Assembly (NCBI GenBank): GCA_028534125.1
Contig: JAPYYK010000045.1
Coordinates: forward strand, 248,001-312,000
Source: Lama glama
Taxonomy: Eukaryota
DNA: 64,000 nucleotides
Reading direction: 5' to 3'
Shown: positions 19,466 through 64,000 of the stretch, piece by piece
Layout: every line of letters begins with the position of its first letter
Numbering within the stretch: the stretch's first letter is position 1
Notes under the pieces: model-generated
What the model was told of the DNA's origin: nothing
What the model saw: the letters and a program-made list of their open reading frames with translations, nothing else
The model's database searches: none
Position numbers and translations under genes: made by a program

Positions 19466-19950
19466 GGCCTCTGGGTTACGTGCCACTATGAAGACCGGAC
19501 CGGCCTGCACCACCGCCCCAGCCCGTGCTGCTGGAGAACTGGCGTAATGCCTGCCCTCTCGAGGGATCAGACAGGGCGCTGACTGTCCACAGCCTGCAAG
19601 GGGCCTCGCTGGACACAGGAGAAACGCAAGCCTTGGCACTTGTCAGCACAGACAGTCCCGTGACCTACCCATCTGGCCGAACCCTTCCCAAAGCCCCCAG
19701 CCCGCAGGTAAAGCACCATCGTGAAGCACAGAATGTTTCATTTGGTTACGTGACACCCAAACATGTTATTTCCCTCTTAAAATGCTTCTATGACCTGCAA
19801 AAGCCTCAGAAACAGAAGCAGAGCTGTGGCTCCAAGACCGCACTTAGAGTTTTAGTCTGAGCTGTAAGTTTGCTAAAGGGCTGAGTGTCCCTTCTTCCTG
19901 CCCAGGAGTCAGGGCCGTCGGTGTGCTTCCCGGTATAAGAAAACAGTTCA

Positions 19951-20075
19951 GGGGGAGGGTACAGCTCAGGGGCAGAGTGCGTGCCTGGTACGCACCAGGT
20001 CCTGGGTTCGGTCCCCAGCACCTCCTCTAGTAAATAAATAAATGAATAAACCTAATTACCACCCCCCCCAAAAGA
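19951..20075 (+). mobile_element. tRNA-derived SINE, Vic-1-like (camelid)
   Basis: GGGGGAGGGTACAGCTCAGGGGCAGAG (A box), GGTCCTGGGTTCGGTCCCCAG (B box), a TAAA-repeat tail and a degenerate AAGAAAA(CA)GTT target-site duplication. Confidence 0.8.
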
Positions 20076-22314
20076 AAAGTTTAAAACCTGGGGAAGCAGG
20101 TACTGCAGAGGCGCCCGTGTCGGCATCTAGGGGCTGCACGGGAACCCACCTGGACATAATGTCACGGCTTCCTGATTAGAGAAACCCGTGTCTGTAAGTG
20201 GCTGCTACCTGACTCCTGACCCTGCGGAGGAACGTGGACATGGAGGGAGGAGATGGGGACGGGTCACTTGCCCAATCCCCGACAGCCCAGGACAGCGATG
20301 ACCGTCAGTGCCCCCGCCCCCGTCCTGTGGGCAGGCCTGCAGACAAACCCCACGCTGACGCGGCACCTCAGGCCTGGGGCTGGAAGGCGGACATCAGGGT
20401 GGAGGCGCTCTGGCCATGCCGCCCACGGAGAAAGGAAGACCGCAGTGACCACGGGAGTGCTCGGACCCCACTGAGGGGAGCTAGCCTCCCGGAGGCTGCA
20501 GAGTCCCAGCACAGGACCACTCCCATCAGAGAGCTGAAGCCAGCACTCAGAAGACCCTCCCAGCGCGTCCACGTCGGTGGCGTGTGGACCTGGGGACGCC
20601 CAGCTGGGCAGGACCCTGCTCTTGAGAAAGTCGTCAGCTGTTCTTGAAAAGCACAACTTGGGAAAACCACCAGCAGAAGGCTCAGCAGGATTTCAGCACC
20701 TTCTTGTGCGTGAAGGACGCGGACAATTCTCCCTGCTCTTTAAAGGGGTACGAAGCCCCCGTTGTGACAAGTGTTTTCTGAGACGCCCACCCCAACTGGA
20801 AACGAAGCTCTTACATGAAGTACTCAGCTAAATTTATGCAGAAACAACACTAAAACATGAAGGGGAAACGGAGGGGGAGTGATTCACGAGGAGACAAGTA
20901 TTCCAACGTGTGAAGTTCTGGTCCAGCAACATGAGCAGGCACGACGGAGGAGTCGGGGCTTGACTGGTCAGCAATGCCCAAAAGGCGGAAGCCAGACGTG
21001 GCCCTGGGGGACACGCCGGCTCACGAGGTAGCTACGCAGGGACGGGCACCACTGCGTCACCGCTTCTCCTCCGTTTGCGCGGTGGTTGGATTTTTGGAGC
21101 CACCACTGCCAGAAACTGAGTTTATACAAAAAATCAACTCTTGATTTTGGACTCAGGCCACAGAAAGGTTCCTTCTACGACCACTCAGGGAGACGAGGCC
21201 CAGAGGCTGCAGGACGGTGCGTCACGGGGGGTGCGCCCACAGAGTGCACGCACACCATCCCCGTCGCCGCGGCCCCTGAAAGCACCACCCCCCGAAATGC
21301 TCCTCTTACTCTCCCATACTTCACGCGCTTCCTAAAGCATAACGCGCTACCTCTGTAATCATAAAAAACAAGCTCCAGCAGTTTCGAGCTCACCGGTGTC
21401 CCTCCCACAGAGTCACAGGGTCACAGGCCACTCGCACAAACTGACACCTAGAGGGCAGTCAGAGGCAGAAGGAAGAAACCGGGGTTTAAAAAGAGGTCAA
21501 GAGGTTAACTACCCTACCTTTGGTAGCTGACAAACTTCCCACATCTTTAAATAAGACGTTCAACCCAAGTCCAAACAGATACTCTAAGATCAACTTATTC
21601 TATCTTAAAAAAGATTTCTGACTAAAGCAGAATTCACTGATGTAATGGGACAGTGAGTCCAAAAATTACAGGGTCTCTAAGGAATACACGCGAGCTTTGA
21701 TTACTGAGATTTGCTTGGCAACGGCACGATCTAAAATTAATAGAGTCCTTAAAAGGAAGATGCCAAAAGCAACTTTGTTCTCAGATAGTTTATACAGCTT
21801 GGCCAGAGCAAGGCACAAGAATGACCCAAATATAGAAAACTCAGCATCGCCACATCCTAGGAACCACAGCCGCAAAGCAAGCACAGACATGCAGAGAGGA
21901 GAGACGCGCCAGTGCGCCTGGGGTCTCCGTGTCGGGGGCAGACCCTCCCGGGTCTGGGCAGAGGCAGCTTTCCAGTCCTCCTGTCCCCACCTCCTCCCCA
22001 GACGGCCACCGCTCTGGGGGCTCACGACAGCCCACCCAGTGAACCCGCCCTCCTTTCGTCCTCTGAGCATTATCGTCAAATTTCCCAGACCTCTCAGAAC
22101 CCTCTCACTCTGGGGACAAGCTAAGCCTCTTCTTCTGGCGAAAGATAAAAAAGCTGAGGGAGAAAATCTGCATTATCTTTTCACTCTTTTAAAAGGAGAA
22201 GAAGCTCACTTAAAAAAAAAGAAAAGATTATGATTGTTTACGGTGTTTTGTGAACAATGTTCCTTCTCTACACGAACAACCAGTTCTGACAGCTCACCTA
22301 CCGTGCCTGCAAAG

Positions 22315-22370
22315 TGAGTCAAAGGCTCTCCACACGCAGGCTGGGCCGGGACATACCTTACCATATTAGG
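22315..22370. promoter_or_regulatory. AP-1 motif (TGAGTCA, 22315-22321) plus CArG box CCATATTAGG (22361-22370)
   Basis: The CArG is identical to the c-fos SRE core; the mirror copy lies at 61264-61319. Confidence 0.45.
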
Positions 22371-27351: not shown

Positions 27352-27393
27352 CCACATCTCCTTCACATCGTCAGAGACATCGGCTCCGTCCCC
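27352..27393 (-). CDS. PPP1R12B: PPP1R12B exon 18 (left copy), GDGADVSDDVKEMW
   Basis: 42 nt; polypyrimidine-CAG acceptor and GTAAGT donor; similar to human EDETDGSEEVKETW. Confidence 0.92.
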
Positions 27394-28367: not shown

Positions 28368-28480
28368 ATCCTGTGTCCAGAAATTGATGCCTGTGCCTCT
28401 CCGGCGTTCCCTGGGCCGCCTCCTCTCACGGACGGTCAGCCTGTGGGAGGACGCGTCATCCAACTCTGCCTCCTCACCCT
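28368..28480 (-). CDS. PPP1R12B: PPP1R12B exon 17 (left copy), EGEEAELDDASSHRLTVRERRRPRERRRGTGINFWTQD
   Basis: 113 nt with AG/GT boundaries; contains the MYPT RRRGTGINFW motif (counterpart of the MYPT1 T853 site). Confidence 0.95.
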
Positions 28481-28561
28481 CTGGCCAGAGAGAACACAAG
28501 GCACAGGTCTTGAGAACCTGGGGTGCTGCGGGGGGGCCACACTCCCAGAAGCCCTCCTTAC

Positions 28562-28751
28562 CATTTCTGTCCCTCTCCTTTGCTGTCGCAGCGTCCACAG
28601 TCATCTCTGAACTCCCAGGACCTGGGGCGGAAGGGCTGCTCACCCGGAGCAGAGGGGAACCAGGGCAGAGGGAGGGTCGGGCCTCAGAGGACGACGCTGG
28701 CGTCGTGGGCTTGTCGGGCTGAGCTGGACACCTCAGGCGACGAGAGACAGG
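28562..28751 (-). CDS. PPP1R12B: PPP1R12B exon 16 (left copy), PVSRRLRCPAQPDKPTTPAS...AKERDRN
   Basis: 190 nt, CAG acceptor and GTAAGG donor, phase 0 to 1; RLRCPAQPDKPTTPAS matches MYPT2. Confidence 0.94.
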
Positions 28752-29989: not shown

Positions 29990-30169
29990 CTCTGCATCCA
30001 GACCCCGGCCCCAGGGCTGCGGGCCCTCCGCGGCCTCCTGCTTCTGGGCGCTGCTCTCAAGGCCCCCGGGGACCATGGGCTTCGGGCCAGGCGGCTCGGG
30101 AGCCTGACGCTCTGCCCGCGACTGGCTGAACGTCCTCTCTGCCTCCTGGAGATCAGTGAGGGTCACACC
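29990..30169 (-). CDS. PPP1R12B: PPP1R12B exon 15 (left copy), GVTLTDLQEAERTFSQSRAERQA...QPWGRGLDAE
   Basis: 180 nt, CAG acceptor and GTGAGC donor; GVTLTDLQEAE is the conserved MYPT motif. Confidence 0.96.
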
Positions 30170-31500: not shown

Positions 31501-31591
31501 CTGAGTAGACCTCCGTGTCTGCCGCGCCTGTCGGGAGCGTGCTTTCCGCAAGGACTCGGCTTCTTCATCCCTTACAGGAGTCAGGTACGAC
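31501..31591 (-). CDS. PPP1R12B: PPP1R12B exon 14 (left copy), SYLTPVRDEEAESLRKARSRQARQTRRSTQ
   Basis: 91 nt, strong polypyrimidine-CAG acceptor and GTGAGC donor; contains the RRST inhibitory phosphosite (counterpart of MYPT1 T696). Confidence 0.97.
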
Positions 31592-32596: not shown

Positions 32597-34861
32597 CAAG
32601 TATATCTCAGGGCCACCGCAATAAAGTGGATGTTGCAGTAAAGTGAGTCACATGACATTTCTGGCTTCCTGGTGTGCATAAAGGTTATGTTTATACTCTA
32701 CTGTAGTCTACTAAGTGTGCAATAGCATTATGCCTAAAAGACAATGTTCATACTTTCATATACTTTATTGCTAAAAAATGTTAACCATTGCCTGAGCCCT
32801 CAACGAGGCATGATCTTTGTGCTGGTGGAGGGTCTCGTCTCGACCTGGACGCTGCTGACTGATCAGGGAAGCGGCTGCTGAAGGGGTGACGGGGCCGGCT
32901 GTGGAAGTTCCTCAAGAAAGCAGTGAAGTTGGCTGCACTGATGACTCTTCCTTTCACAAACGATTTCTCTAGCGTCCGTGCTGTCTGACAGCATTTTCCC
33001 CGCAGTAGAACCTCTCTCAAAACTGGAGCCCATCCTCCCAAGCCCTGGGGCTGCTGTCTTTGCAACTAAGTTTGTGGGAGGTTCTAGATCGCTTGTTGTC
33101 CTCCCAGCAGTCTTCACAGCATCTTCACCGGGAGCAGATGCCGTCTCGAGAAGCCACCTTCTCTGCTCACCCACAGGAAGCAGCTCCTCCTCTGTGCCAG
33201 TTCAGCCCGAGGTGGCAGCAGTCCAGCCCCGTCTTCAGGCTCCACGTCTCACTCCCGTTCTCTTGCTGTCTCCACCGCAGCTGCGGTGACATCGAACCCT
33301 CCAAGCCGTCCATGAGGGTTGGAACCAACTTCCTCCAGACCCTGTTAAGGCTGACATTCTGACCTCTCCCCACAAACCACAAGTGTTCTTCGTGCATCCG
33401 GAATGCTGAGTCCTTCCAGAAGGCTTTCAGCGGCCTTCGCCATCGAGGATCATCGTCTCTGGCGGCTGCAGCCTGACAACACGTATTTCTTAAATAATAA
33501 GACCGGAGAGTTGAAATGATGCCCTGAGCACAGACTGGGGCGTGCAGCGGCAGCCGGTGCGGACACAGCGTGGACCTCAGCCACACCTCGGGCTGCACCG
33601 GGGCTCGAGGCTGCCAGGTGCCCTGTCAGTGAGCAGCAACGTTTTGAGAGGAGACTTTTTTCTGAGCAGAAGGTCTCTCATTGGGCTGTAAACCGTGCTG
33701 CAGGCAGATGTACTGTCACCCGGGCCTGCTGGTACGCGTTTAGGGCACAGGCAGAGCAGACCTGGCATCACTCTCGAGGGCCCTGCGACTTCAGGTGGCA
33801 AACAAACCCTGGCTCCACATGAGAGTACCCCGCCGCACCAGCCCGACGCATCAGTCTGTCCTGGGAGGCCCTGGGCCAGCGTTCACGCCTCCCCCTGGCT
33901 GTGGAAGTCCTGACGTCGTCTTCTGCCCACAGAAGGCTGTCCGCCTACGCTGAAATCTGCTGCACAGCGTGGCCGCCTTTGTGCGCGAACCTGGCTGGAT
34001 CTTCTGGGGAACCTGCCACCGTGTCTCCAACAACACTGGCTGGCCCACCTGCCCTGATGTTCTGGAGACGGTGACCCCCTTCAGCCTCGTGAACCAGCCT
34101 CTGCCGACTTCACACTCTCCTCCCGGCTGTCCTGGGGCTGAGGTGGGGCCTGGCTCTGGATGAGGCTTTAACTAGGGGATGCTGTGGCTGGCTTAATTTT
34201 CTACCCAGACACTGAAACTTTCTCCGCACCAGCAATAAGGCTGTTCCACTTTCTTATCATTCGCGTGTTCACTGAAGTAGCACTTAAAATTCCCTTTAAG
34301 AAGTTTTTCTTTGCATTCACGACATGGCTAACTGGCTCGAGATGCCAGCTTCTGGCGTATCTTGGCTTTGATGTGCCTTCCTCACCGAACTTCCTCATTT
34401 CTAGCTTTTGACCTCAAGCTGTGGACGTGTGACTCTTCCTTTCACTTGAGCACTCAGAGGCCACTGTGGGTTATCAGCTGGCCTCACTTCAGTGTTGTCA
34501 TGTCCCCGGGAACAGGGAGGCCCGGGCAGGAGGAGACGGAATGGCTGGTCGGTGGGGTGGTCAGACATGCACATTTACTAAGTGTGTGGTCTCACATGGG
34601 TGCGGTTCATGGCACCGCGAAACATTTACAGCAGTAACATCAAAGAACACTGATCACAGACCACCATAACAGATACGGTCACAATGAAGAAGTCTGGAAT
34701 ATTGCGAGAAATGCCAAAACGTGACAGAGACATGAAGTGAGCAAAGGCTGCTGGGAAAAGGAGAGGACAGACTTACTGGATGCAGGGCTGCTACAAACCT
34801 TCAATTTGTGAAAACACAGTGTCTGTGAAGCTCAGCAAAGCGAAGTCGCTACAATTACCTG
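32597..34861 (-). mobile_element. Tigger1 (pogo-family DNA transposon), near full-length, decayed
   Basis: Terminus TA|CAAGTATATCTC...CCACCGCAATAAAG...GTGTGCAATAGCATTATG. Frameshifted transposase fragments resembling Tigger1/TIGD1: VVNAKKNFLK...NTRMIRKWNSLIA, GIISTLRSYYLRNT, SFERGSTAGKMLS. Confidence 0.9.
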
Positions 34862-34974
34862 CAGCACGGTTCTCAGATGCTTTTGCTCTGAGGGCCCTTC
34901 TACACTTCACCCTTTACCGAGGACCCCAAACAGCTGCTCGTGAGGTGCATCTATCACTATCCACCCTACTAGGC

Positions 34975-39300: not shown

Positions 39301-40153
39301 TGTGCGTGTCCACACACGAAGCAGTGACAACCAACAGTCTCGAGCGATGCGCACAAGTTCAGGACGGAGGCCACCTCTGGGGAGGGGTTGGGGGTGAGGC
39401 TGGAGACACCAGCATAAACTACGTCTCTCATGTTTTACTTGAAAGGGTGAAGCCAGCACAGCAAGTGCTGGGACGTGACACAGCTGCAGGATGGATACAC
39501 TGGCTGTTGGCAGTAGTAATAATATTCTAAAAGGAAAGACTGTGCACGGTTTGATCTCAAGGCAACTATGACACAGAGACACTGCAGGGACGCTGCTGGC
39601 GGTGAGCGTGCGCATCACCCTTATTTCCTGCCTGAGATTTACGTGCCATAGAAAATGTGATAAACGCCATGGACTCAGACCCCTTGGCTGCGCCCGCCTG
39701 GAACGGGGCTCCAGCGGCTGTAACCGGCCTCCCTCGGGGAGAAGGGCCCTGCGAGCAGGAGGAGCCCCTAACCCTGGTTTTTAACCTTATTCAACACTAG
39801 CCTGTTTTCAACAACCAGACCCAAAATGTCATTTCCTCCCAGGAAAAAGAAAACTATTTATACATAAGGAAATTTTGCCAGCACTTTTGGGGATTTCTGG
39901 ACGTTTCTGAAGCTCAGGTTCAGAAGAGAAGAACCTGCAGGACCCAGCCAGTTACCTTCAGGGGAAAGTAAGTGTGAACAGTGTCTCCTTGAGCCACCCC
40001 CATGCTGCAGAGTCCAACTCCTTGAAGGCTCAGCGGCACTTTTAAAAGTTAGGCTTCCTGAGGAGTAATTCACATACAGCAAAATGTGCCCTGAACTATA
40101 TACAAGTCTAAGAGTTCTGGTAAGTGTGTCACAATCAAGAAACAGAACAGCTC

Positions 40154-40270
40154 GGGGGGAGGGTGTCGCTCAAGCGGTAGAGCACGTGCCTAGCATGCAC
40201 ACTGTCCTGGGTTCAATTCCCGGTACCTCCTCTAAAATAAACACATAAGTAAATTTAATCACCCCCCAAA
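40154..40270 (+). mobile_element. tRNA-derived SINE, Vic-1-like
   Basis: GGGGGGAGGGTGTCGCTCAAGCGGTAGAG...GGGTTCAATTCC, with TSD AAGAAACAGAACAGCTC / AAGAAATAGAGCAGCTC (17 bp, 2 mismatches). It appears to be inserted in an old L1 3'-end fragment. Confidence 0.85.
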
Positions 40271-41667
40271 GAAATAGAGCAGCTCCATCACCGCCCTCTT
40301 GCAGTTAACCTCCCCCGGCCCCTGCCTAAGGGGAGCTGTTTTAATTAAAGAGAAAGCTTCAAAACCACTGAAGGAACACATTGACTTTTTCACTCCCACT
40401 GAAACGCAACACATAAGGCAATGATGACCAGGAGACTGGGTGTGAGCCACTGCACGCAGCCAAGCACACGCAACGCCTGGCCTCCACTCGCTGCCAGCCT
40501 CTCCCGGTCGGGAAGGCGGGCGCCCCAGGGTCCGCACGTCCTTAACACCTGGCACTGTGCCCGCCCTCCACGAGGTGCTCCAAAGCCATCACTGAACTGA
40601 ACTGAGCCGATGCGTGAAATTCAGGGTCTGAGTTGTTACCGTTTTGCCTTTCATTTCTGAAGTCCGGCCAACAGTGTGTTGGTTCCGTCCTTCACTTTCC
40701 TCATTCCATCCGATCCTCCAACCAACTCCTCTGATACATTTTCTGACCCGTCACAGACACTTTATCAAGTGACAGCCTGGTCTCCCGCAGGAGCTTGTGG
40801 GGAAGTTGTACATACAAAGTACGCTCATTGCAATTTATGGCTTAAAAAAAGCCATAAAGAGACAGTGCCTGAGGGGGTCACAAGGAAGGTGACTTGCATG
40901 GAATCGACAGGGAGGAGGGAGAGGCCTCCTAGAAGACAAGAGGGACGCCATCGCTGGGGGTGGCGCTTTGGGCTGTGAAGCAGGAGAGTGAGCTGCGCAG
41001 ACCGCACACTCTGGCCAGTTAGGAGGGACAGGGACGGGGAGGGGGGCGGTTCTGGCGGAAGCCTGCGGGGAGTGACGAGGGCAGGTCACTTCTTGGTGAG
41101 AAGGAAGTTGTCTGGCTCGATCCCCAAGCTGCTCAGTGCGGTGACACTTACGCAGGACCACTGACAAAGACAAAACAGCTAAAACAACGCTCCTTCTTGC
41201 CTTTTTAGGGTCAGAGGGGAGGAAGTGGTTTTGTTTATTTGTTTATATCCTCTTTCTAACTAGGACTCGAGAACTCTTAAGACACACACACCCCTGGCCA
41301 TATTTGAAACAGATGAAGAAACAAGGGGGAAGGAAATGATGGCCAGTTACAGCCACAGCTTTGCAGGGTCCACGCGAAATTACACAGCTCCGCAGAGGAA
41401 TCTGGGCTGGAAATGGAGACGTGGGAGCCAGTGGAGCAGATGAGACCAGTTCGGGAAGGTCCTAGGGGGAGGGAAGGAGGCAGCCTAGGAGGCCCAAGGT
41501 GCCTGCAGGAGAGAAGGGGCTGAACGGGCACCAAGGAGGGTGTGGGGGCTGTGGAGGGGAACAGAGCACCGGGGCGACCGTGTGTGGAGGGCATGGCTCA
41601 GGAAGGCGGCAGCCACACGACCAAAGGCTGCCAGGAGCAATGCTTTCAAGGCTGCGGCGACACAGGA

Positions 41668-41767: not shown

Positions 41768-41923
41768 CTCCCCTGTCCCCCTGCCTGTCCCCTCCCCTGT
41801 CCCCCAGCCTATCCCCTCCCCTGTCCCCCAGCCTGTCCCCTCCCCTGTCCCCCTGCCTGTCCCCTCCCCTGTCCCCTCCCCTGTCCCCCTGCCTGTCCCC
41901 TCCCCTGTCCCCTCACCTGTCCT
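41768..41923. repeat. 12-bp minisatellite, about 13 units (CTCCCCTGTCCC / CCTGCCTGTCCC / CCAGCCTGTCCC), truncated by the gap
   Basis: Units read directly from the sequence. The plus strand is C-rich and the minus strand reads GGGACAGGGGAG repeats. Confidence 0.95.
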
Positions 41924-43363
41924 GCACACACGCTTGGGCACCCTGCCGCAGCCCCAGTAACCCGGCTCCTGTGTCGCCGCAGCCTTGAAAGCATTGCTCC
42001 TGGCAGCCTTTGGTCGTGTGGCTGCCGCCTTCCTGAGCCATGCCCTCCACACACGGTCGCCCCGGTGCTCTGTTCCCCTCCACAGCCCCCACACCCTCCT
42101 TGGTGCCCGTTCAGCCCCTTCTCTCCTGCAGGCACCTTGGGCCTCCTAGGCTGCCTCCTTCCCTCCCCCTAGGACCTTCCCGAACTGGTCTCATCTGCTC
42201 CACTGGCTCCCACGTCTCCATTTCCAGCCCAGATTCCTCTGCGGAGCTGTGTAATTTCGCGTGGACCCTGCAAAGCTGTGGCTGTAACTGGCCATCATTT
42301 CCTTCCCCCTTGTTTCTTCATCTGTTTCAAATATGGCCAGGGGTGTGTGTGTCTTAAGAGTTCTCGAGTCCTAGTTAGAAAGAGGATATAAACAAATAAA
42401 CAAAACCACTTCCTCCCCTCTGACCCTAAAAAGGCAAGAAGGAGCGTTGTTTTAGCTGTTTTGTCTTTGTCAGTGGTCCTGCGTAAGTGTCACCGCACTG
42501 AGCAGCTTGGGGATCGAGCCAGACAACTTCCTTCTCACCAAGAAGTGACCTGCCCTCGTCACTCCCCGCAGGCTTCCGCCAGAACCGCCCCCCTCCCCGT
42601 CCCTGTCCCTCCTAACTGGCCAGAGTGTGCGGTCTGCGCAGCTCACTCTCCTGCTTCACAGCCCAAAGCGCCACCCCCAGCGATGGCGTCCCTCTTGTCT
42701 TCTAGGAGGCCTCTCCCTCCTCCCTGTCGATTCCATGCAAGTCACCTTCCTTGTGACCCCCTCAGGCACTGTCTCTTTATGGCTTTTTTTAAGCCATAAA
42801 TTGCAATGAGCGTACTTTGTATGTACAACTTCCCCACAAGCTCCTGCGGGAGACCAGGCTGTCACTTGATAAAGTGTCTGTGACGGGTCAGAAAATGTAT
42901 CAGAGGAGTTGGTTGGAGGATCGGATGGAATGAGGAAAGTGAAGGACGGAACCAACACACTGTTGGCCGGACTTCAGAAATGAAAGGCAAAACGGTAACA
43001 ACTCAGACCCTGAATTTCACGCATCGGCTCAGTTCAGTTCAGTGATGGCTTTGGAGCACCTCGTGGAGGGCGGGCACAGTGCCAGGTGTTAAGGACGTGC
43101 GGACCCTGGGGCGCCCGCCTTCCCGACCGGGAGAGGCTGGCAGCGAGTGGAGGCCAGGCGTTGCGTGTGCTTGGCTGCGTGCAGTGGCTCACACCCAGTC
43201 TCCTGGTCATCATTGCCTTATGTGTTGCGTTTCAGTGGGAGTGAAAAAGTCAATGTGTTCCTTCAGTGGTTTTGAAGCTTTCTCTTTAATTAAAACAGCT
43301 CCCCTTAGGCAGGGGCCGGGGGAGGTTAACTGCAAGAGGGCGGTGATGGAGCTGCTCTATTTC

Positions 43364-43480
43364 TTTGGGGGGTGATTAAATTTACTTATGTGTTTATTTT
43401 AGAGGAGGTACCGGGAATTGAACCCAGGACAGTGTGCATGCTAGGCACGTGCTCTACCGCTTGAGCGACACCCTCCCCCC
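43364..43480 (-). mobile_element. Vic-1-like SINE, mirror copy
   Basis: Reverse complement of 40154-40270. Confidence 0.83.
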
Positions 43481-46400
43481 GAGCTGTTCTGTTTCTTGAT
43501 TGTGACACACTTACCAGAACTCTTAGACTTGTATATAGTTCAGGGCACATTTTGCTGTATGTGAATTACTCCTCAGGAAGCCTAACTTTTAAAAGTGCCG
43601 CTGAGCCTTCAAGGAGTTGGACTCTGCAGCATGGGGGTGGCTCAAGGAGACACTGTTCACACTTACTTTCCCCTGAAGGTAACTGGCTGGGTCCTGCAGG
43701 TTCTTCTCTTCTGAACCTGAGCTTCAGAAACGTCCAGAAATCCCCAAAAGTGCTGGCAAAATTTCCTTATGTATAAATAGTTTTCTTTTTCCTGGGAGGA
43801 AATGACATTTTGGGTCTGGTTGTTGAAAACAGGCTAGTGTTGAATAAGGTTAAAAACCAGGGTTAGGGGCTCCTCCTGCTCGCAGGGCCCTTCTCCCCGA
43901 GGGAGGCCGGTTACAGCCGCTGGAGCCCCGTTCCAGGCGGGCGCAGCCAAGGGGTCTGAGTCCATGGCGTTTATCACATTTTCTATGGCACGTAAATCTC
44001 AGGCAGGAAATAAGGGTGATGCGCACGCTCACCGCCAGCAGCGTCCCTGCAGTGTCTCTGTGTCATAGTTGCCTTGAGATCAAACCGTGCACAGTCTTTC
44101 CTTTTAGAATATTATTACTACTGCCAACAGCCAGTGTATCCATCCTGCAGCTGTGTCACGTCCCAGCACTTGCTGTGCTGGCTTCACCCTTTCAAGTAAA
44201 ACATGAGAGACGTAGTTTATGCTGGTGTCTCCAGCCTCACCCCCAACCCCTCCCCAGAGGTGGCCTCCGTCCTGAACTTGTGCGCATCGCTCGAGACTGT
44301 TGGTTGTCACTGCTTCGTGTGTGGACACGCACACCGCCCCGTGTGATAAGTGATGCTCTGATGGTCTGCGTGGACCGTCTCACTGTCTACACGGCCATCC
44401 CAAGCCCACGTTCTCACGGGGACGCTCGCTCGAGGCCCTCGTGTGCTGTGCCCCGCAGTTTGGTTTCGGTTTTTACCTGCTCGTGGACACTCGGGTCATT
44501 TCCCTTTTCCCTCTAGTATTAACGGTGCTGCTGTGCATTCTCACTCCTGTTTCCTTGTGCAAATGAGCGAGTTTCTCGAGGGTGTTTGTTTCCCAGTGGA
44601 CGCTGAGGCTGTCGGGCGTGGGGACAAGCGCACACTTACTGGGGACCCCGGCCCCCTGCAGCAGGCGGGTCTCCAGCTCTTTGTGGCCCACGTTGTGCTT
44701 AGAGATGCCAGTGCTTTTTGTTTTTGCAGACCTTGGGAAGATGGAGTGGTTTCTCCTCGTTTTTACTTGCATTTCATGACGACGAGTGACACTGACTCTT
44801 TCCTCCCGTGCTTGTAGGCTTTCTGGCTTTCCTGTGTTTGTGAATTCCTTGGTTGTACGCTTTGTTGACTGTGTTTTCCTGTTGGGTTTGGCGGGTGTTT
44901 TTGGTTGGTGTAAGTTCTTGGTACAGTCTAGATACTAACATTTGGCAGGTGACGCGTCTGTGGTGGTCTCCAGGGTGTCTTACAGCGTCCGGGTCGTGCT
45001 CTGTCGTGTGGGTGTTCTATAAGCTGTCTGACTGCTGTCCCTGTTTGTTTGAGAGCTGGGTTATTTCCGTGAATAGTTTGTGTGTTGACTTTCCTGGATT
45101 TTCTTGTTTAAAAGAGGTCAGTGGTGCTTTGACTCGGACCTGATGTGTGTCATAATCAGCGATGAGTGTTTGGCACAGTTGCCCGGCTGGAGGCACGCGG
45201 CCGGGGTGTGAAGTAAAGCACCCCTGTGTGGGGGCTTGAATCTGCCGTTCTGGATCCAAAGCGCTCGCGCTGAACCTGCATAACTGTAGAGCCACCTGCG
45301 CGAGTCGAGTCTCGTCGCCTGGAATGTGTTCCGCGGGACGGCGTTCAGAAGCACAGCGCGCGGGACAACAGGCGCCGTCCTCAGGCCGGCGGAGAACCCG
45401 GGCTCGCCGTGTCTGCACAGCGTCGACAGGGAGTTCTCCGAGCCGTGGTTCGGTGCCGTGTGGCTTGGAGTCTGGAGCAGGGAGCCGCAGGGCCTAGACA
45501 GTGTGTCTTCTGGGCTCTGTGGGCCGCACGGTTTCCGGCCCGGCCGCCTCGCCCCAGCCCCTCCGGTGCTCCGGCAGGCTCATGGGACAGCCCTGCAAAG
45601 TCGAGGATCCACCATGTGGCCCTTTACTGCGGACCTGGCGCTGTTAAAATCTTGGGCCAAACGATTCTTTGTGCCTGTGGAGAATTGCTGGTCCAGAGGG
45701 GCAGAAAATGCATGGCTTAGTGGGGAGACCCGCCGCCCTCTGCGTCATCCTGGTTAGCAGAGCTGTAGCTTTGGTTCCTTGCTTGAACTTCGGCTCTGGT
45801 CTCAGTGTTGAATTAGAGAGGGTGGCCTGGCATGTGAGACTAGAACACAGGTAGATGGTAGTCAGGTCACACCCCAGTGCGTGCACATACTCGGCCCAGG
45901 TCTTCCTGACCTGAACTCAGCACACCAGACTGAGCAGGGCTGTTTCTCCTCTGTGTCAGGTCTGAGGTCTGTCCCTGTGTCTGTCTGTCTGCCGTGTGTT
46001 TCCCTTTCCCGTCTCTTCTCCTATGTTGACAGTTGCTGGTCGGCTACGCCCGGCTTCCAGCAGGGCGTTGTTCACAGCTCCCTGGGATGGAGGCAGCAGG
46101 GGGACAGCCGCGGGCTGGTGGGGTGTCCTCCTTCCCTGCTGCAAGCGGGGAGGAGGATTGGTGGTTGGTACAGGGTGTGAAATACGCAGCTAATGGCACG
46201 TATTTTGGGAACTGGTAGCCCCAAGATTTGGCCTTCCCCTCCTTCTCAGCAGCAGCTTCTTAGCAGATTACAGGCTTTGCCTCTGCTTGTGGGACAGTTT
46301 CCCAGGAGGCCGGGTTTTCAGCCTGCCGTCTTCCCAGCCACCACTTACCTGCCTCGCTGTTCATCTCCAGAGGCCTTTGACCGTCATCTTGCCCTGCAGG

Positions 46401-52042: not shown

Positions 52043-52133
52043 GTCGTACCTGACTCCTGTAAGGGATGAAGAAGCCGAGTCCTTGCGGAAAGCACGCTCC
52101 CGACAGGCGCGGCAGACACGGAGGTCTACTCAG
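52043..52133 (+). CDS. PPP1R12B: PPP1R12B exon 14 (right copy)
   Basis: ctctgcag|GTCGTACCTG...TCTACTCAG|gtgagc; mirror of 31501-31591. Confidence 0.95.
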
Positions 52134-53464
52134 GTGAGCGTGGCCCTGCTTGAAGGCCACTTGTCTGTGTGCCACTGGATCCGATTAGAAAACGATGAAA
52201 CGAGTGCCCCAGTCCGGCCGCTGCAGTGCAGCTCTCGGCCGCGCTGGCAGACGCTGCACGCCACACAGGGCCAGGTGAACTCTCACTTCTGCTCCTCCTG
52301 GCTCGGAGAAGGCTTACTGCCTTTCCTCCCTAAGACTCATCATTCCACTTGTGCTTAAGGGGCCAACCCTAAGAATTCCTGAAGGAGACCCGTCTGGCAG
52401 TAACTCAGAATGTTAAACGTAGAGTTGCCGTGTGACCCTACTCAAGTCAGAGAAGCACACGTCTGTACAAAGACATGCACACAGATGTTTATAACAGTAT
52501 TATTCACAAACTGAGTGTCATCTCTTGCCAGCGTTGACTTGCTGTGTAGACCAAACTTAGGTGTGGAGTTTGCAGGCTTGCTGGAGCAGCGAGGTGGGCA
52601 TCGTGGGGCTGGTGGAGGGCCAGGCCAGGCCGTGGAGCAGAGCAAATAAATTAAGCAGTTAACAGAAAACCCCACAAACTTCCACTGATTAATGAATGGA
52701 CAAACAAAACGTCCCATGTCCACCGGCAGTTACTGTTTTGCAGTAAGACGGGAGTCCCACACACGCCAGCGCTGCAGTGAGGACAAGCCGCTGAGTGGCA
52801 GAGACCTGGCTGCTCCGTTTGTATGAAAACGCCCGGAGACAGCGGGTGGATTAGGGTTTGCGAGGCTGGAGGTGGGGACTGGCTGCGCGAGGGTGTGTGG
52901 TCTCTCTCTGGGGAGATGAAATGTCCTGAGGTGAGGTGGGGCTGTGAAGACACTAAAATACAGCGCATTGTACACTTTCAAAGTGTGGGGTTTATGATAC
53001 GTGGGTTATATTTCAATAATGCTACTAGAAAAAGAAATGATCCCCATGGGAGGCTCTGAAGTAAGAAGTCATCCGATACACTTTGTAAAAGTCACAGGCA
53101 GAGAACAGATGGGCGTGGTCAGAGGGGGTGTGTTCCGTGTGTCGTTGGGGGGTGGGGGGCAGGCTGCTGGATGGTGGTGGGGAACGGAGGAGGGTGAGCT
53201 GCAGGAGAAGCTGTTGAGGAGGGAGGCAGGGAGGGGTGAGGAGGGCCCGGACGCACACGGAGGGCTGAGAAGCCCGCCGCTGCCATGGAGAGGTGAAGTC
53301 CCATGGCCTTCGGTGCAGCAGGGGCCAGGCAGGAACACCGAATGGCCCTGTGTGTTTGGGGGGCTTTATTGGAATTTGCTGCTGTCAGATCTTTTCGAGT
53401 AACTCTTGCTCATTCATCGAGTTCTTCCCGGAGTGAAACTCCTGACCTTGTGACACTTTCCCAG

Positions 53465-53644
53465 GGTGTGACCCTCACTGATCTCCAGGAGGCAGAGAGG
53501 ACGTTCAGCCAGTCGCGGGCAGAGCGTCAGGCTCCCGAGCCGCCTGGCCCGAAGCCCATGGTCCCCGGGGGCCTTGAGAGCAGCGCCCAGAAGCAGGAGG
53601 CCGCGGAGGGCCCGCAGCCCTGGGGCCGGGGTCTGGATGCAGAG
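53465..53644 (+). CDS. PPP1R12B: PPP1R12B exon 15 (right copy)
   Basis: ttcccag|GGTGTGACC...GATGCAGAG|gtgagc; mirror of 29990-30169. Confidence 0.95.
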
Positions 53645-54882
53645 GTGAGCCGCTTGGCGCTGCCCTGCTGGGCCCATCGGCCTGGCCTCGTTACCCTCGT
53701 GTGATCTCTTTCTCCCCTCAGGCGTTGGTTCCTGCTTTTTCCCTGTTTTATTGGGATGCGGTGGGCATATAACATTGTGTTAGTTTTGAGTATACACAGG
53801 ACAGTTTGGTACGTGGGTATACGGTGAAATGACCACGTGAGTTCAGTGGCTGAGTTGAACTCTCTGCCCTGGAAGGAGAGGTCCTGGAGGATAAAATGCA
53901 GATGGAAACATAAGTGCTCGCTGTTCGCTTTGTGCCAGGCGCTGTTGAACCACGTCAAATGTGTTAAAGCGTTTAATTCTGAATACAGTCCTCGGAGGTG
54001 GACATTCCCGTCCCTTTTTTAAACGTGAGGAAGTGGAGTCACCGAGAGAGTAGCTTGCTGGCGTTTTGCGCAGTGGCGCGGTGGCTCGCAGGCACCGGCC
54101 CGCGGGCAGGCTGCCTCCACGGCTCGGTGTGCTGCTCTCCCAAGAGTTTACGTGCGCCCCAACCTCACGAACACGACACCTGGTTGTCCCCAGACGCTCT
54201 GGTTACACCTTTCATCTCTGCACTGTCAGCACCAGCCCTTTCCGCTCGGTGCCACGTCCCCGATGGGAGGATAAATTTTGTGGCCACCATAGTTCCAGGA
54301 GAAGGAAGCCCTGCTCTAACCGTGGGCGGCTGGGCTGCAGAGCGCCCGCCCAAGGCTCTGTGGCTTACTTTGCTCGCTTGTCGGCTACTGTCTTCTGTGT
54401 GCTTAGCACTGGGCGCTGTTCTGAGCGCCTGGCGCCCTGTCGGCAAGCCTGGTTATGGCAGTTGGCGGGGTGCTCAGACCTGGTTCTCAGAGAGCTCCCA
54501 CGCCGTTTCTGCCCATTCCTGAGCCTCCTGCTTTGCGAGGTTCGCCTTGCCCTTCGGTTCCCCTCTTAAGAAGGCCGTGCACCCTCCCTCCTGACGTCGT
54601 CCGGCTTCAGAGGAAGTTTTATGACCCGGCGGGCGCTGCTTCCTGGGCCCTTTGGTCTGCTTAGGAATGGCCGTCCTGGGCTGCTGTCGACCTGACGGCG
54701 GTGCCAGCGCGGGGGTCCAGGGGCTCTTTCCTTTCTGGCCGATTATCCAGCTCGGTAGCTCTTCAGTGGGCATCTGCTGCTTGCGAGCCTCTGGGTGTGG
54801 AAAAGCCCGTTTTCAAAAAGCCTGGGTCCCTGCCCTTTTGCTGGACGTGACCTCTGACGTCTCGTCCTGTGGGTCATTCCAG

Positions 54883-55072
54883 CCTGTCTCTCGTCGCCTG
54901 AGGTGTCCAGCTCAGCCCGACAAGCCCACGACGCCAGCGTCGTCCTCTGAGGCCCGACCCTCCCTCTGCCCTGGTTCCCCTCTGCTCCGGGTGAGCAGCC
55001 CTTCCGCCCCAGGTCCTGGGAGTTCAGAGATGACTGTGGACGCTGCGACAGCAAAGGAGAGGGACAGAAATG
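54883..55072 (+). CDS. PPP1R12B: PPP1R12B exon 16 (right copy)
   Basis: cattccag|CCTGTCTCT...AGAAATG|gtaagg; mirror of 28562-28751. Confidence 0.93.
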
Positions 55073-55153
55073 GTAAGGAGGGCTTCTGGGAGTGTGGCCC
55101 CCCCGCAGCACCCCAGGTTCTCAAGACCTGTGCCTTGTGTTCTCTCTGGCCAG

Positions 55154-55266
55154 AGGGTGAGGAGGCAGAGTTGGATGACGCGTCCTCCCACAGGCTGACC
55201 GTCCGTGAGAGGAGGCGGCCCAGGGAACGCCGGAGAGGCACAGGCATCAATTTCTGGACACAGGAT
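55154..55266 (+). CDS. PPP1R12B: PPP1R12B exon 17 (right copy)
   Basis: ctggccag|AGGGTGAG...ACACAGGAT|gtaagt; mirror of 28368-28480. Confidence 0.94.
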
Positions 55267-56240
55267 GTAAGTGGGCAGGCCGTGCCAGGACTGGTCACAC
55301 TGTCTCGACCGTGGCCCTCATGCGGAGCTCAGGAGTTCCCGTCATGCCCTGAATCCTGCGTGGTCGGGAACAGAGCAGAGGGAGGCTCACCTGGGGTGTG
55401 ACTCATTTGGAAGGTCCCTGCCGTCCTGGGGCCTGGAGCGGGACTGAGCGCGGGGCGGGCAGGCAGCAGCCAGTGGTGAAGGTGGGCACATGGAACGGTC
55501 ACAGCTACCAGACAGCCAAATATAGTGAGTGGGGGAGCTTGTCTGACATCACCCCTCCTCCCGGGGTCCCAGAGAGTCATGAGGTCAGCAGCACCCCCAC
55601 ACGACGGAGCAGATTCTAGCTGAATGTTCCGGAGTGTGGTGAGAACGTGAAGGGCCTGGAGGTCTGTAAGCAGCGCACACTCACCCGGCTCACGTGCTCC
55701 CCTGACTCAGTTTTACTGCTTTGGAGGAAAAGAGGAACAAATGATATAAAACATTAACTTCGGCTTTTAAACAAAGACAGACGCTCCAGTGCTTGATTGC
55801 AAGCACACGTTCAGGACTTTGATTCACCCCCTTGTTCCCACTGTTCCCGCTCAGCTTCATGTGGGCATTTTAGTAATCGAGCGGCCAGCACAGTTGCCTG
55901 GTTACCAGGGACACGTTTGAAACTAGACAGGCCGCCTAGCGAGGCCAGAGGTGAGACAGTCCCAGCCCTTGATTAGCGACGGTTAGACAAGCGCTGCGAG
56001 GCCGGAGGACCAGGCTGTGGAGGTGGAGCCAGGTCTCTTTCGTCAGGTGCTCCACACCAGTCAGGGGCACTGGGCTTCCGACTGCAGGTGGCGGCCCGAG
56101 CCGGCCTGTGGCGACCCTCAGAGCAGCAGGGGCGGCGCCCCCGGCAGGCAGCACTCCCTGCCAGGGCACGTGGCTATGGGGCCGTGCTGCTCCTGGGGCT
56201 GTGACTGACACTCTTGTTTCTCTCCCTCCTTCCTCTCCAG

Positions 56241-56282
56241 GGGGACGGAGCCGATGTCTCTGACGATGTGAAGGAGATGTGG
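56241..56282 (+). CDS. PPP1R12B: PPP1R12B exon 18 (right copy)
   Basis: cctctccag|GGGGACGGA...GAGATGTGG|gtaagt; mirror of 27352-27393. Confidence 0.91.
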
Positions 56283-59200: not shown

Positions 59201-62200
59201 CTTAGAATTGGGAGGGAATTTAGAGATGACCCGGGTTACGAAGCTCCTTTCACAGGTAAGAGAGCTGTGGCCCGGGGGGCTGGGACACGTGGGGACATGA
59301 AGCTCCCAGGTGGGCCCTGCCGCGTCCAGGGCCTCCGGGTGGCCTGCTTGGGGCTGGCACGCCTCCTCCGCCCCCTCTGCCATCTGGTTTTTACTGAGCC
59401 GGTTACCTGTCTGAGTTGACTTGCTTGTGGCATCTCACCTGCTTGAGTAAGGGAAGGTCGTCTGGAACGGCAACTTCTGAGGGCGTCCGGACTCCGTGGG
59501 TGGGCGGGTGGCGCCCCCTGCTGGCCTCGGTGTGGGAGGCCCTCGAGGTGTTTCCCACCTGTGCTGCCTCTTTTACAACCTGCTTCCCACTTGTGGTTGT
59601 TGAACCAGTGCTTTGAGCTGCCTGCTTTCCAGACCCTGTGTCGTCACACTGACACAGCCCACCCTTGTCGAGTTAGGTTATGGTGAAGAGGGTGAGCGAT
59701 GGAAGGAACGTGCTGGGTCACTGGCAGCTGGAAAGGTGAGGGCCTGTAGGGGGCGTCCTGTGGGGGTCAGGAGAGGCCTGTGAGAGGGTGTCCCTGGAGC
59801 CTGGACTGGGAGCACGTGCGCTGGGGGCCTGGCGGGTGTGTGTGGGCGGAGCGCTGTGGGCAGAGGGGCAGCGCTGGCCCGGCTGTGAGGTGACGTGCCT
59901 GGGGACCACGAGTGGCTAGCATGCCGGCAGTGGGCGTGAGGGCTCCGGCTGGTGTCCTGAGAGCGTGGGAGACACGTGTCGAGCTCCGGACAGAGGAGAC
60001 AGGGTGGTACTTAACCCTGAAGGGCCCTTACCCGCTGCTCTGAGACACACTGTGAGGGGTCCAGGTGGTCCAGGGAGAGCTGATGGGGTGCTGCAGGCCA
60101 GGGTGGCCACGCCTGGGAAGGTGCTGAGATGTCTCCGCGTCCTGGACGGGTTTGAGGTGGGAACCGGGAGGGTGTCTGGACTGGGTGTGAGGTGAGGCTC
60201 ACCTGGCCTTCCAGCTGAGGCAGCTGGGAGGTTGGCGTTTTCATTTGCTGAGGTGCAGAAGACTGGGAGGGCCAGGTGTGGTGGGGAAAACAGGCATTTG
60301 GGTCTGGCTCTCGCAGCGCTGCTTCACGTATCTGAGTGGTGTCCAGGAGGAGGGCGGGGTCAAGGTGAGAGGTGAGGGCCAACCACACAGCAGCCAACCC
60401 AGCCCCAGCCGGGAGCCAGGACGGGTCCCCCAGGGAGCACGTGGAGGCAGGGAGGCCTGAGGACCCAGAGTTGGCCACAGTGGCAGTTGGGACGTGGGGT
60501 TTCGGAACTGAAACAACTCTGAGCTTCTCATTTTAGAGACCAGCTGAGGCCCAGGGAGACGCGCTCCCGGCTGTGGCTGTGGCTGCCCTGCAGCCCGCGG
60601 TCACCAGGGCCTCTCCGTCTGTCGTGCCTCTTCCGTGACCCTCTGGGGTGACCCGGGACCAGACCCCGGGCACTCCCCAGCGGCCCTGAGCTCTCTGGAG
60701 GAGGTGCACCCCTCTCCTGGTCTGTAGGACGGGGGTTTCAGGTCGTTTCTGAATGGGGGCGAGGGTGAGCGCTGGCCGTGGAATCGCATCTTGTGGGTTT
60801 GAAGTTAAGTCACCCAGAGGATGGCAGTGGCTCGGGGCTCTGAGACAAGTGCTGAGGGCTGCCGGGGCAGGAAGGCAAGGCGCCCGAACTTAGCGCCTGG
60901 TGTGTGCGGAGCCGGGCGGGCAGGAGCAGGCCGCGTCCCCCAGGCTTCCCGCTTTAGGCCTGGTGTTCCCAGTGGCTCACTCCACGGCTCTTTGCTGCCC
61001 CCTCCTCCCCGACCCCACCTGCTCTGGGTAAGCAGTGGCCCTGTTTCCTCTTTGCTCTGATTGTCCACAGCTTTGCCTCTGGTCGTCGGCGGGTCCTGCT
61101 CCCTCCTGCCGCATTGTTAATCTGGTCACTGATCTCCTGAAGTTCCCTCTCTCTGGGAGGCCTCCAGGGGCTTCTGTCCATCTGCGCCCACTGGGCGTCC
61201 TTGACTCTCCATTTAGGTAAAATCCTTGGAGGTTTGTGCTCCCTTCTCTCTGGGGCCCGATGGCCTAATATGGTAAGGTATGTCCCGGCCCAGCCTGCGT
61301 GTGGAGAGCCTTTGACTCACTTTGCAGGCACGGTAGGTGAGCTGTCAGAACTGGTTGTTCGTGTAGAGAAGGAACATTGTTCACAAAACACCGTAAACAA
61401 TCATAATCTTTTCTTTTTTTTTAAGTGAGCTTCTTCTCCTTTTAAAAGAGTGAAAAGATAATGCAGATTTTCTCCCTCAGCTTTTTTATCTTTCGCCAGA
61501 AGAAGAGGCTTAGCTTGTCCCCAGAGTGAGAGGGTTCTGAGAGGTCTGGGAAATTTGACGATAATGCTCAGAGGACGAAAGGAGGGCGGGTTCACTGGGT
61601 GGGCTGTCGTGAGCCCCCAGAGCGGTGGCCGTCTGGGGAGGAGGTGGGGACAGGAGGACTGGAAAGCTGCCTCTGCCCAGACCCGGGAGGGTCTGCCCCC
61701 GACACGGAGACCCCAGGCGCACTGGCGCGTCTCTCCTCTCTGCATGTCTGTGCTTGCTTTGCGGCTGTGGTTCCTAGGATGTGGCGATGCTGAGTTTTCT
61801 ATATTTGGGTCATTCTTGTGCCTTGCTCTGGCCAAGCTGTATAAACTATCTGAGAACAAAGTTGCTTTTGGCATCTTCCTTTTAAGGACTCTATTAATTT
61901 TAGATCGTGCCGTTGCCAAGCAAATCTCAGTAATCAAAGCTCGCGTGTATTCCTTAGAGACCCTGTAATTTTTGGACTCACTGTCCCATTACATCAGTGA
62001 ATTCTGCTTTAGTCAGAAATCTTTTTTAAGATAGAATAAGTTGATCTTAGAGTATCTGTTTGGACTTGGGTTGAACGTCTTATTTAAAGATGTGGGAAGT
62101 TTGTCAGCTACCAAAGGTAGGGTAGTTAACCTCTTGACCTCTTTTTAAACCCCGGTTTCTTCCTTCTGCCTCTGACTGCCCTCTAGGTGTCAGTTTGTGC

Positions 62201-63558
62201 GAGTGGCCTGTGACCCTGTGACTCTGTGGGAGGGACACCGGTGAGCTCGAAACTGCTGGAGCTTGTTTTTTATGATTACAGAGGTAGCGCGTTATGCTTT
62301 AGGAAGCGCGTGAAGTATGGGAGAGTAAGAGGAGCATTTCGGGGGGTGGTGCTTTCAGGGGCCGCGGCGACGGGGATGGTGTGCGTGCACTCTGTGGGCG
62401 CACCCCCCGTGACGCACCGTCCTGCAGCCTCTGGGCCTCGTCTCCCTGAGTGGTCGTAGAAGGAACCTTTCTGTGGCCTGAGTCCAAAATCAAGAGTTGA
62501 TTTTTTGTATAAACTCAGTTTCTGGCAGTGGTGGCTCCAAAAATCCAACCACCGCGCAAACGGAGGAGAAGCGGTGACGCAGTGGTGCCCGTCCCTGCGT
62601 AGCTACCTCGTGAGCCGGCGTGTCCCCCAGGGCCACGTCTGGCTTCCGCCTTTTGGGCATTGCTGACCAGTCAAGCCCCGACTCCTCCGTCGTGCCTGCT
62701 CATGTTGCTGGACCAGAACTTCACACGTTGGAATACTTGTCTCCTCGTGAATCACTCCCCCTCCGTTTCCCCTTCATGTTTTAGTGTTGTTTCTGCATAA
62801 ATTTAGCTGAGTACTTCATGTAAGAGCTTCGTTTCCAGTTGGGGTGGGCGTCTCAGAAAACACTTGTCACAACGGGGGCTTCGTACCCCTTTAAAGAGCA
62901 GGGAGAATTGTCCGCGTCCTTCACGCACAAGAAGGTGCTGAAATCCTGCTGAGCCTTCTGCTGGTGGTTTTCCCAAGTTGTGCTTTTCAAGAACAGCTGA
63001 CGACTTTCTCAAGAGCAGGGTCCTGCCCAGCTGGGCGTCCCCAGGTCCACACGCCACCGACGTGGACGCGCTGGGAGGGTCTTCTGAGTGCTGGCTTCAG
63101 CTCTCTGATGGGAGTGGTCCTGTGCTGGGACTCTGCAGCCTCCGGGAGGCTAGCTCCCCTCAGTGGGGTCCGAGCACTCCCGTGGTCACTGCGGTCTTCC
63201 TTTCTCCGTGGGCGGCATGGCCAGAGCGCCTCCACCCTGATGTCCGCCTTCCAGCCCCAGGCCTGAGGTGCCGCGTCAGCGTGGGGTTTGTCTGCAGGCC
63301 TGCCCACAGGACGGGGGCGGGGGCACTGACGGTCATCGCTGTCCTGGGCTGTCGGGGATTGGGCAAGTGACCCGTCCCCATCTCCTCCCTCCATGTCCAC
63401 GTTCCTCCGCAGGGTCAGGAGTCAGGTAGCAGCCACTTACAGACACGGGTTTCTCTAATCAGGAAGCCGTGACATTATGTCCAGGTGGGTTCCCGTGCAG
63501 CCCCTAGATGCCGACACGGGCGCCTCTGCAGTACCTGCTTCCCCAGGTTTTAAACTTT

Positions 63559-63683
63559 TCTTTTGGGGGGGGTGGTAATTAGGTTTATTCATTTATTTAT
63601 TTACTAGAGGAGGTGCTGGGGACCGAACCCAGGACCTGGTGCGTACCAGGCACGCACTCTGCCCCTGAGCTGTACCCTCCCCC
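63559..63683 (-). mobile_element. Vic-1-like SINE, mirror copy
   Basis: Reverse complement of 19951-20075. Confidence 0.8.
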
Positions 63684-64000
63684 TGAACTGTTTTCTTATA
63701 CCGGGAAGCACACCGACGGCCCTGACTCCTGGGCAGGAAGAAGGGACACTCAGCCCTTTAGCAAACTTACAGCTCAGACTAAAACTCTAAGTGCGGTCTT
63801 GGAGCCACAGCTCTGCTTCTGTTTCTGAGGCTTTTGCAGGTCATAGAAGCATTTTAAGAGGGAAATAACATGTTTGGGTGTCACGTAACCAAATGAAACA
63901 TTCTGTGCTTCACGATGGTGCTTTACCTGCGGGCTGGGGGCTTTGGGAAGGGTTCGGCCAGATGGGTAGGTCACGGGACTGTCTGTGCTGACAAGTGCCA

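Follow-up and report, generated by a model that had tools for sequence, protein, structure and literature searches.

The sequence represented twice in the window (the whole 64-kb stretch of Lama glama DNA that was analysed) is, by its encoded peptides, the PPP1R12B (MYPT2) orthologue of a South American camelid, with five internal exons in each arm of a large palindrome. The exon peptides follow the same order as in named PPP1R12B proteins, which are also their nearest relatives, and the gene name given in an earlier note on this DNA was right. The first mirrored exon additionally matches the PPP1R12A peptide of PDB 2KJY (E = 6.6e-11). Exon labels 14–18 follow the numbering of that note and were taken over as given. 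The exons lie on the minus strand in the left arm, and their mirror copies on the plus strand. Exon 14 (31501–31591; mirror 52043–52133) has intact AG/GT splice sites and corresponds to alpaca residues 634–663. It is followed by exon 15 (29990–30169; mirror 53465–53644), which is identical to alpaca at 60 of 60 residues, exon 16 (28562–28751; mirror 54883–55072) with 59 of 63, exon 17 (28368–28480; mirror 55154–55266) with 37 of 37 and exon 18 (27352–27393; mirror 56241–56282) with 13 of 13 aligned residues. The four aligned exons other than exon 16 agree with alpaca at all aligned residues. The four amino acid differences in exon 16 are clustered and occur in none of the 29 named camelid proteins that contain this exon. 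In both arms the splice sites and reading frames are intact. Given this and the identity of four of the five exons to alpaca, an old duplicate or a pseudogene was dismissed.

A short PPP1R12B isoform (~186 aa) is also represented. The coding part of its alternative first exon, on the minus strand at 12263–12162, is identical to that of Camelus ferus isoform X22 and sits 7.4 kb outside the visible mirror; its predicted mirror position (71371–71472) falls past the end of the window. With this first exon and the intact internal exons, the locus resembles the short internal-promoter isoform of PPP1R12B (hs-M21 type; hs-M21 is named in PMC10944028, which does not give its exon structure). Unlike the full PPP1R12B, the window does not include the exons further upstream and downstream, and at four residues of one exon it departs from every named camelid protein in the comparison. 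By tblastn, neither the upstream residues with the N-terminal ankyrin repeats (best E = 0.98) nor the C-terminal PF15898 region (best E = 0.18) had a match in the window, and no further PPP1R12B exons were found within it. Most named camelid proteins (29 of 36) run through at least 300 upstream residues into the first mirrored exon. The full-length protein, continuing past the break in our sequence, is encoded in all four named camelid references (alpaca and camel proteins). The earlier note expected annotation to report two 5'-truncated PPP1R12B copies. Annotation of the file would indeed give them, but the mirror seen within the window takes in just the five internal exons and leaves out the short isoform's first exon.

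The Pfam scan covered 84 of the 129 stop-to-stop open reading frames of at least 120 aa, namely those left of the gap (the others are mirror copies or run across Ns), and none of the 84 was matched because the exons are short and of low complexity. The Rfam scan of positions 1–42000 gave two matches, both to tRNA-like heads of short interspersed repeats.

The two arms of the palindrome are related by an exact mirror rule. When coordinate sums from 83620 to 83649 were tried (30 offsets), the arms matched solely at 83634, with 145 of 22,183 pairs mismatched compared to about 16,000 at the other offsets. All 145 mismatches are confined to the central spacer (the 100 Ns and 45 positions within 41768–41816). 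The left arm in its pairable part (19634–41667, plus strand) is joined without Ns to 1–19633, and the right arm (41967–64000, minus strand) is its exact reverse complement. Self-BLAST of the two, an alignment that the earlier note had proposed for counting mismatches, shows 100.000% identity over 22,034 bp with no mismatches and no gaps, so that copy-specific variants are found at 0 of 22,034 positions. A chance match of the arms is excluded. The claim of perfect arms with a sum of 83634 therefore holds, as does the homopolymer pair (A9 at 22212–22220 mirrors T9 at 61414–61422). The centre of the palindrome does not, however, coincide with the gap, which occupies 41668–41767, whereas the symmetry axis is at 41817. 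The outer boundary of the mirror lies beyond the window, making the arm length at least 22 kb; under the self-join described below, an unbroken mirror would be predicted to reach at least position 83,633.

The centre of the palindrome is asymmetric. The spacer consists of the 100-N placeholder gap, which holds the sole Ns of the window, and 199 single-copy bases (41768–41966). Read on the minus strand, this overhang naturally carries the locus on past 41667. It is made up of 44 unique bases and a 155-bp G-rich minisatellite (41768–41922, minus strand; period 12/24, about 13 units) that breaks off at the gap. The minisatellite is the top G-quadruplex-type signal in the window, its score of 2.38 over 100 bp being reached by none of the 41,568 other windows of the scan. 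On the other side, the first N directly abuts the end of the left arm, and the inversion junction has no sequenced base. A true palindrome would show a sequenced spacer joined to both arms; here the left junction is the gap. This is support missing for a palindrome, not proof of its absence in the animal. Nor was a hairpin nucleus for fold-back molecules found at the palindrome tip (z = −0.73; the longest pairs are of 25 nt, 76%, and more than 1.2 kb apart).

For each K from 2 to 1000, we took one copy without its last K−1 bases, added 100 Ns and then the full reverse complement; positions 19634–64000 were reproduced only at K = 200. This fit restates the 199-bp overhang. We consider it quite probable that the palindrome is assembler output, a single stretch of PPP1R12B written twice around a gap, and not a real gene duplication. 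The gap is exactly 100 N, and the left copy is 199 (K−1) bases shorter than the right one, as is expected if an edge of a K = 200 graph is joined to its own inverse. The two copies also adjoin across an assembly gap and share every base, as false duplications do.

The assembler would be of the de Bruijn graph type, such as DISCOVAR de novo or w2rap, working at K = 200 with edges, their stored reverse complements and K−1 overlaps. Short-read coverage may drop out at the G-rich minisatellite that lies 5' of the first mirrored exon, and the contig over the 3' half of PPP1R12B would consequently end within this repeat. Read-pair scaffolding would then link this broken end to the beginning of the same edge in its reverse-complement form, with a 100-N gap in between. 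At output, the first copy would be written without its last 199 bases (K−1) and the second, behind the gap, in full; such trimming before a gap is what we take to be the behaviour of a DISCOVAR-type writer. The self-link might come from a few chimeric or misplaced pairs of the same orientation where normal pairs could not cross the repeat.

Several published properties of these programs agree with this scheme. DISCOVAR de novo is listed with k = 200 (PMC5289110, Table 5) and writes gaps bridged by read pairs as 100 N (PMC4779211); measured on three references, the true median size of such gaps is 192, 185 and 194 bp (PMC4779211, Additional file 5). By our own reckoning, true gaps near 190 bp are what would be expected if about 199 bases were lost at each. 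In w2rap, edges overlap by K−1 and reverse complements are kept independently (10.1101/110999). The value k = 200 was also one of four tried in PMC7216774. The palindrome thus shares with the read-pair gaps of DISCOVAR de novo and w2rap the 100 Ns, K = 200, the doubled graph, the K−1 overlaps and a true gap of about 190 bp. However, those gaps normally link two different edges, and the available parts of these three sources do not describe a self-inverse join. More generally, the literature searched, mostly without subscription papers or the w2rap supplement, contained no account of such a self-inverse artefact in DISCOVAR output, and 10.1101/466292, PMC5411782 and PMC9528984 yielded nothing on self-inverse gap joins.

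Among the mechanisms weighed, the self-join of a graph edge is alone in predicting the 199-bp overhang, although the match of 199 to K−1 was spotted post hoc (rough chance ~0.5%, given a handful of common K values and a range of about 1 kb). The absence of a hairpin at the tip counts against the self-join, since fold-back molecules nucleated there could have accounted for the self-linking pairs. The gap size is less specific, with 100-N gaps being written also by Dovetail HiRise and Supernova.

The earlier note had already favoured one locus represented twice, and this remains the supported explanation. The routes it named (a missed-adapter or fold-back long read, or a duplicated contig joined by the scaffolder) fit worse than the self-join. 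An artefact of that broader kind, which strikes us as unlikely, would consist of two separately assembled copies placed head-to-head by a scaffolder using 100-N gaps, as HiRise does, and polished to identity with the same reads. Such copies could arise where a haplotig is homozygous, where contig ends overlap or where a fold-back long read was later split, and the number 199 would then be a coincidence, not being predicted by this route. At a divergence of 0.07–0.27%, 15–59 differences would be expected between independent haplotypes (P(0) ≤2e-7) unless the region is homozygous or was polished to identity, and barring these conditions two ordinary haplotypes were dismissed. Palindromic chimeric PacBio sequences are on record at 7–17 kb, a size exceeded by the arm of at least 22 kb. 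False duplications do mostly adjoin across a gap, the homotype ones at contig ends and of about read length (10.1101/2020.05.22.110833, Box 1; PMC9516828). The palindrome resembles the homotype cases of the VGP in these two sources in that one locus is present twice, the copies being identical, adjacent and gap-separated and giving false partial genes. In contrast, those cases, produced by overlap-layout assemblers, overlap in tandem over roughly one read length, whereas here the copy is inverted, each arm spans at least 22 kb and the offset is exactly K−1.

Supernova 1.1, built on a DISCOVAR/w2rap-type code base, provides a topological parallel. According to the supplement of PMC5411770, its ZapInversionBubbles step deletes a cell flanked by an edge and the inverse of that edge. 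Such an 'inversion bubble' has the same arrangement as our palindrome: an edge, one cell and the inverse of the edge in a single line. Supernova, though, deletes the cell, puts the edge tail back before the gap and uses K = 48, which would not leave 199 bases, whereas here the join is retained and 199 left bases are missing. Supernova was therefore dismissed as the source.

We give very little credence to a real duplication, in which the 3' half of PPP1R12B was recently copied in inverted orientation on one or more chromosomes of this animal by replication template switching at the G4 minisatellite, and the arms were then merged by a short-read graph into one edge and self-joined via genuine same-orientation pairs. 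G4 repeats are plausible fork-stalling sites, and one lies at the break. The self-link requires support by some read pairs, and the four clustered exon 16 differences could hint at a non-reference copy; the remaining four exons, on the other hand, show no departure from alpaca. A real duplication would further require a breakpoint exactly at the point of sequencing failure and an additional intact copy for the full-length protein encoded in the camelid references; its junction, too, is without a sequenced base. Comparable true palindromes are P4–P8 of the human Y chromosome (10.1101/2022.12.01.518724), likewise with long inverted arms, a short spacer and gene copies inside. Their arms differ by 0.04–0.16% and their spacers are sequenced, as opposed to no differences and an unsequenced junction here. 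If our arms had been assembled independently, identity of the P4–P8 kind (99.84–99.96%) would imply 9–35 differences (P(0) ≤1.5e-4) where none is seen, although a collapsing assembler would mask any divergence between the arms. Such an assembler would give the identical sequence for a true perfect palindrome, and this counts against the self-join reading as well. A PPP1R12BP locus is listed among Y AZFc probes (PMC10638347). Beyond this one table mention, no support for a tie of the window to the human Y PPP1R12BP was found, and the exons in the window match the full-length camelid gene.

Even less credible is the most consequential version, in which a South American camelid would carry a germline fold-back within PPP1R12B, at the G-quadruplex minisatellite, and with it an isoform-specific dosage change in an autosomal palindrome. 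If true, and if the mirror spans the remaining 3' exons, the short heart-type isoform would gain dose through two complete copies, while full-length MYPT2 is not doubled.

Under the preferred self-join of a graph edge, there is probably a single PPP1R12B locus here, the biological weight is most likely nil and the value of the case is as a caution on assemblies. The 5' half of the gene would be cut off and placed on another scaffold, and annotation would also falsely double the short isoform if the mirror continues. Perfect arm identity becomes uninformative on biology because a self-inverse join builds it in. The zero mismatches, which the earlier note had weighed against two haplotypes, would be a software product that says nothing about haplotypes or gene conversion, and a real palindrome would look alike. 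In K = 200 graph assemblies, perfect arms are accordingly no evidence for gene conversion or recent duplication. The fingerprint of such a join is a gap of 100 N at which the reverse complement of the sequence to the left begins at base 200 of the right flank. It is cheap, needs no reads and could flag these joins genome-wide in K = 200 graph assemblies.

The reverse-complementary arms described in the earlier note are exact. Self-BLAST aligned 19634-41667 with 64000-41967 over 22,034 bp (0 mismatches, 0 gaps), and the homopolymer that had been spot-checked agrees in the sequence. Among the 30 mirror offsets tested, the sum 83634 was the only match. The palindrome had also been placed symmetrically around a 100-N gap; here we had to correct the note, as the Ns occupy 41668-41767 and the symmetry axis lies at 41817. 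The off-centre position of the gap turns out to be the decisive point. The left arm ends at the first N, and the spacer consists of the 100 N followed by 199 bases that occur once (41768-41966), 155 of them belonging to a minisatellite (period 12/24) cut by the gap and the other 44 being unique. Taken in minus-strand orientation, the right contig repeats the left one and extends it by 199 bases.

The region 19634-64000 can be rebuilt as a sequence trimmed by K-1 bases (K being the k-mer size of a de Bruijn graph assembler), 100 N and the full reverse complement of that sequence; over K=2 to 1000, this works for K=200 only. The match between 199 and K-1 was noted post hoc. We take it that the DISCOVAR writer trims K-1 bases before a gap. 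A k-mer size of 200 is listed for DISCOVAR de novo (PMC5289110, Table 5), w2rap was likewise run at 200 according to passages of PMC7216774 and PMC5289110, and DISCOVAR de novo writes 100 Ns where read pairs bridge a gap (PMC4779211). Against three references, the median true size of such gaps comes to 192, 185 and 194 bp; the 10th percentile lies at 93-104 and the 90th at 225-1,293 bp (PMC4779211, Additional file 5); we read the sizes of ~190 bp as the trace of 199 bases lost per gap. In w2rap, as an excerpt of its description puts it, edges share K-1 overlaps and each sequence is stored in both orientations (10.1101/110999). The window thus probably contains one graph edge printed twice, through a self-inverse join with K-1 trimming. 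Our literature search turned up no paper that directly describes this artefact in DISCOVAR output; palindrome splitting, covered in PMC9528984, is a different effect. Supernova scaffolds by putting a gap edge between lines (a passage of PMC5411770), and a source routine excerpted in its supplement, commented 'weird inversion bubbles', removes cells flanked by mutually inverse edges, the same topology as that of the fold-back in the window. Supernova itself does not fit as the source because its writer restores the tail before the gap and uses K=48.

The break site is compositionally extreme. Our own implementation of G4Hunter gives the terminal minisatellite a score of 2.38 over 100 bp, the next best score elsewhere is 1.57, and none of the 41,568 windows in 1-41667 attains the minisatellite value. 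GC-rich and structured DNA is known to leave gaps in assemblies built from short reads (PMC9516821). No hairpin was detected at the tip: folding of the terminal 500 bases was no more stable than that of shuffled sequences (z -0.73), and inverted matches nearby are short and imperfect. Some 620 bp before the gap lies a short G-rich segment similar to the minisatellite unit (41021-41049, plus strand); it points the same way as the array does on the natural strand and so is not an inverted seed. Introns in the window have unusually high values for a mammal (GC 0.57-0.59, CpG observed/expected 0.52-0.56), a composition that favours short-read dropouts. In the proposed self-inverse join, coverage would have stopped within the minisatellite and normal pairs would have fallen short of unique sequence on the far side. 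The sole link would then have been a few pairs with both reads facing the same end, either library chimeras or misplaced repeat reads, from which the scaffolder would have joined this edge to its inverse, and the writer would have trimmed the left copy on output. If so, the mirror should continue free of mismatches to at least 83,633 and to the scaffold ends. The K-1 offset provides a read-free test for such joins.

A different false duplication, in which identical contig-end copies sit on either side of a gap, seems unlikely: such copies are reported in VGP papers (10.1101/2020.05.22.110833, Box 1; a passage of PMC9516828) and HiRise also writes 100 N (10.1101/201830), but the 199 bases are not predicted and haplotypes without polishing would differ. 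Less probable still is a real fold-back duplication of the locus. Arm identity cannot refute it, because a collapsing graph would print the same sequence; had the arms been assembled independently, identity at the level of human Y palindromes P4-P8 (99.84-99.96%, a figure in 10.1101/2022.12.01.518724) would give 9-35 differences, versus 0 observed. Three points count against it: its breakpoint must coincide with a sequencing failure, a further intact gene copy is required, and no sequenced base in the window records the inversion junction. Over all artefact readings together, the palindrome is very probably an artefact, and it is most likely not a real feature.

We read the entire non-redundant part of the window for exons. 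The minus strand carries five with AG/GT ends, at 31591-31501, 30169-29990, 28751-28562, 28480-28368 and 27393-27352 (alpaca identity 30/30, 60/60, 59/63, 37/37 and 13/13, respectively), mirrored at 52043-56282; they are presumably exons 14-18, a numbering adopted from the earlier note. For the first exon, a match was obtained with the PPP1R12A peptide of PDB 2KJY. The third, used as a query, retrieved 27 proteins from 113 candidates, every named one being PPP1R12B, with Vicugna pacos (94%) ranking before Camelus (89%) and apes (57-59%). The near-complete exon identity to alpaca places the source among South American camelids. These matches support the gene name proposed earlier, PPP1R12B, and the palindrome warns of false partial gene copies. 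For comparison, we used the 36 named camelid proteins out of 72 cluster members (alpaca, dromedary, Bactrian and wild camel, encoded on sequences of 34-44 Mb). The first mirrored exon has at least 300 residues ahead of it in 29 of the 36 and is absent in 7. In the window, neither the 633 upstream residues of the alpaca protein (best E 0.98) nor those beyond 838 (best E 0.18) have a match. At the protein level, PPP1R12B is seen to extend past the fold-back point in these four relatives, since the 29 proteins join upstream residues that are unmatched in the window; this speaks of other animals and not of copy number.

In a 38-bp stretch of the third exon (28627-28664, mirror 54970-55007), four residues depart from all 29 named camelid proteins holding this exon (T to P, M to V, R to S and D to A), identically in both arms, and the remaining four exons match alpaca fully. 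The chance of such clustering is ~0.0008 in 616 coding bases, a post hoc value blind to silent changes. The cluster adjoins a G-run motif (28654-28681), and the codons imply an A/T-to-G/C change in at least three of the four cases, so the differences may stem from an allele, from GC-biased conversion or from strand-specific read errors. The cluster does not discriminate between the competing explanations.

Two tRNA-derived short interspersed repeats, 74% alike, occur at 19942-20077 and 40146-40274 (mirrors 63557-63692 and 43360-43488) and presumably resemble a camelid-specific family. A decayed DNA transposon at ~32600-34900 (minus strand), which we take to be Tigger1-like, gave a weak CENP-B N-terminal match in one of 10 frames scanned (E 0.011, below the curated cut-off); this frame had no match in PDB.

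A sixth exon, the first coding exon of a short PPP1R12B isoform, lies outside the visible mirror (12263-12162, minus strand). Its 34 residues are identical to the 186-aa isoform X22 of Camelus ferus, presumably hs-M21, the heart-type small subunit, and the exon is conserved among named mammals. The hs-M21 protein is named in a passage of PMC10944028. If the mirror reaches 71,472, this exon would be falsely doubled. About 50 bp inside the following intron begins a 52-bp unit present twice (12005-12113), which carries G-run motifs on its minus strand.
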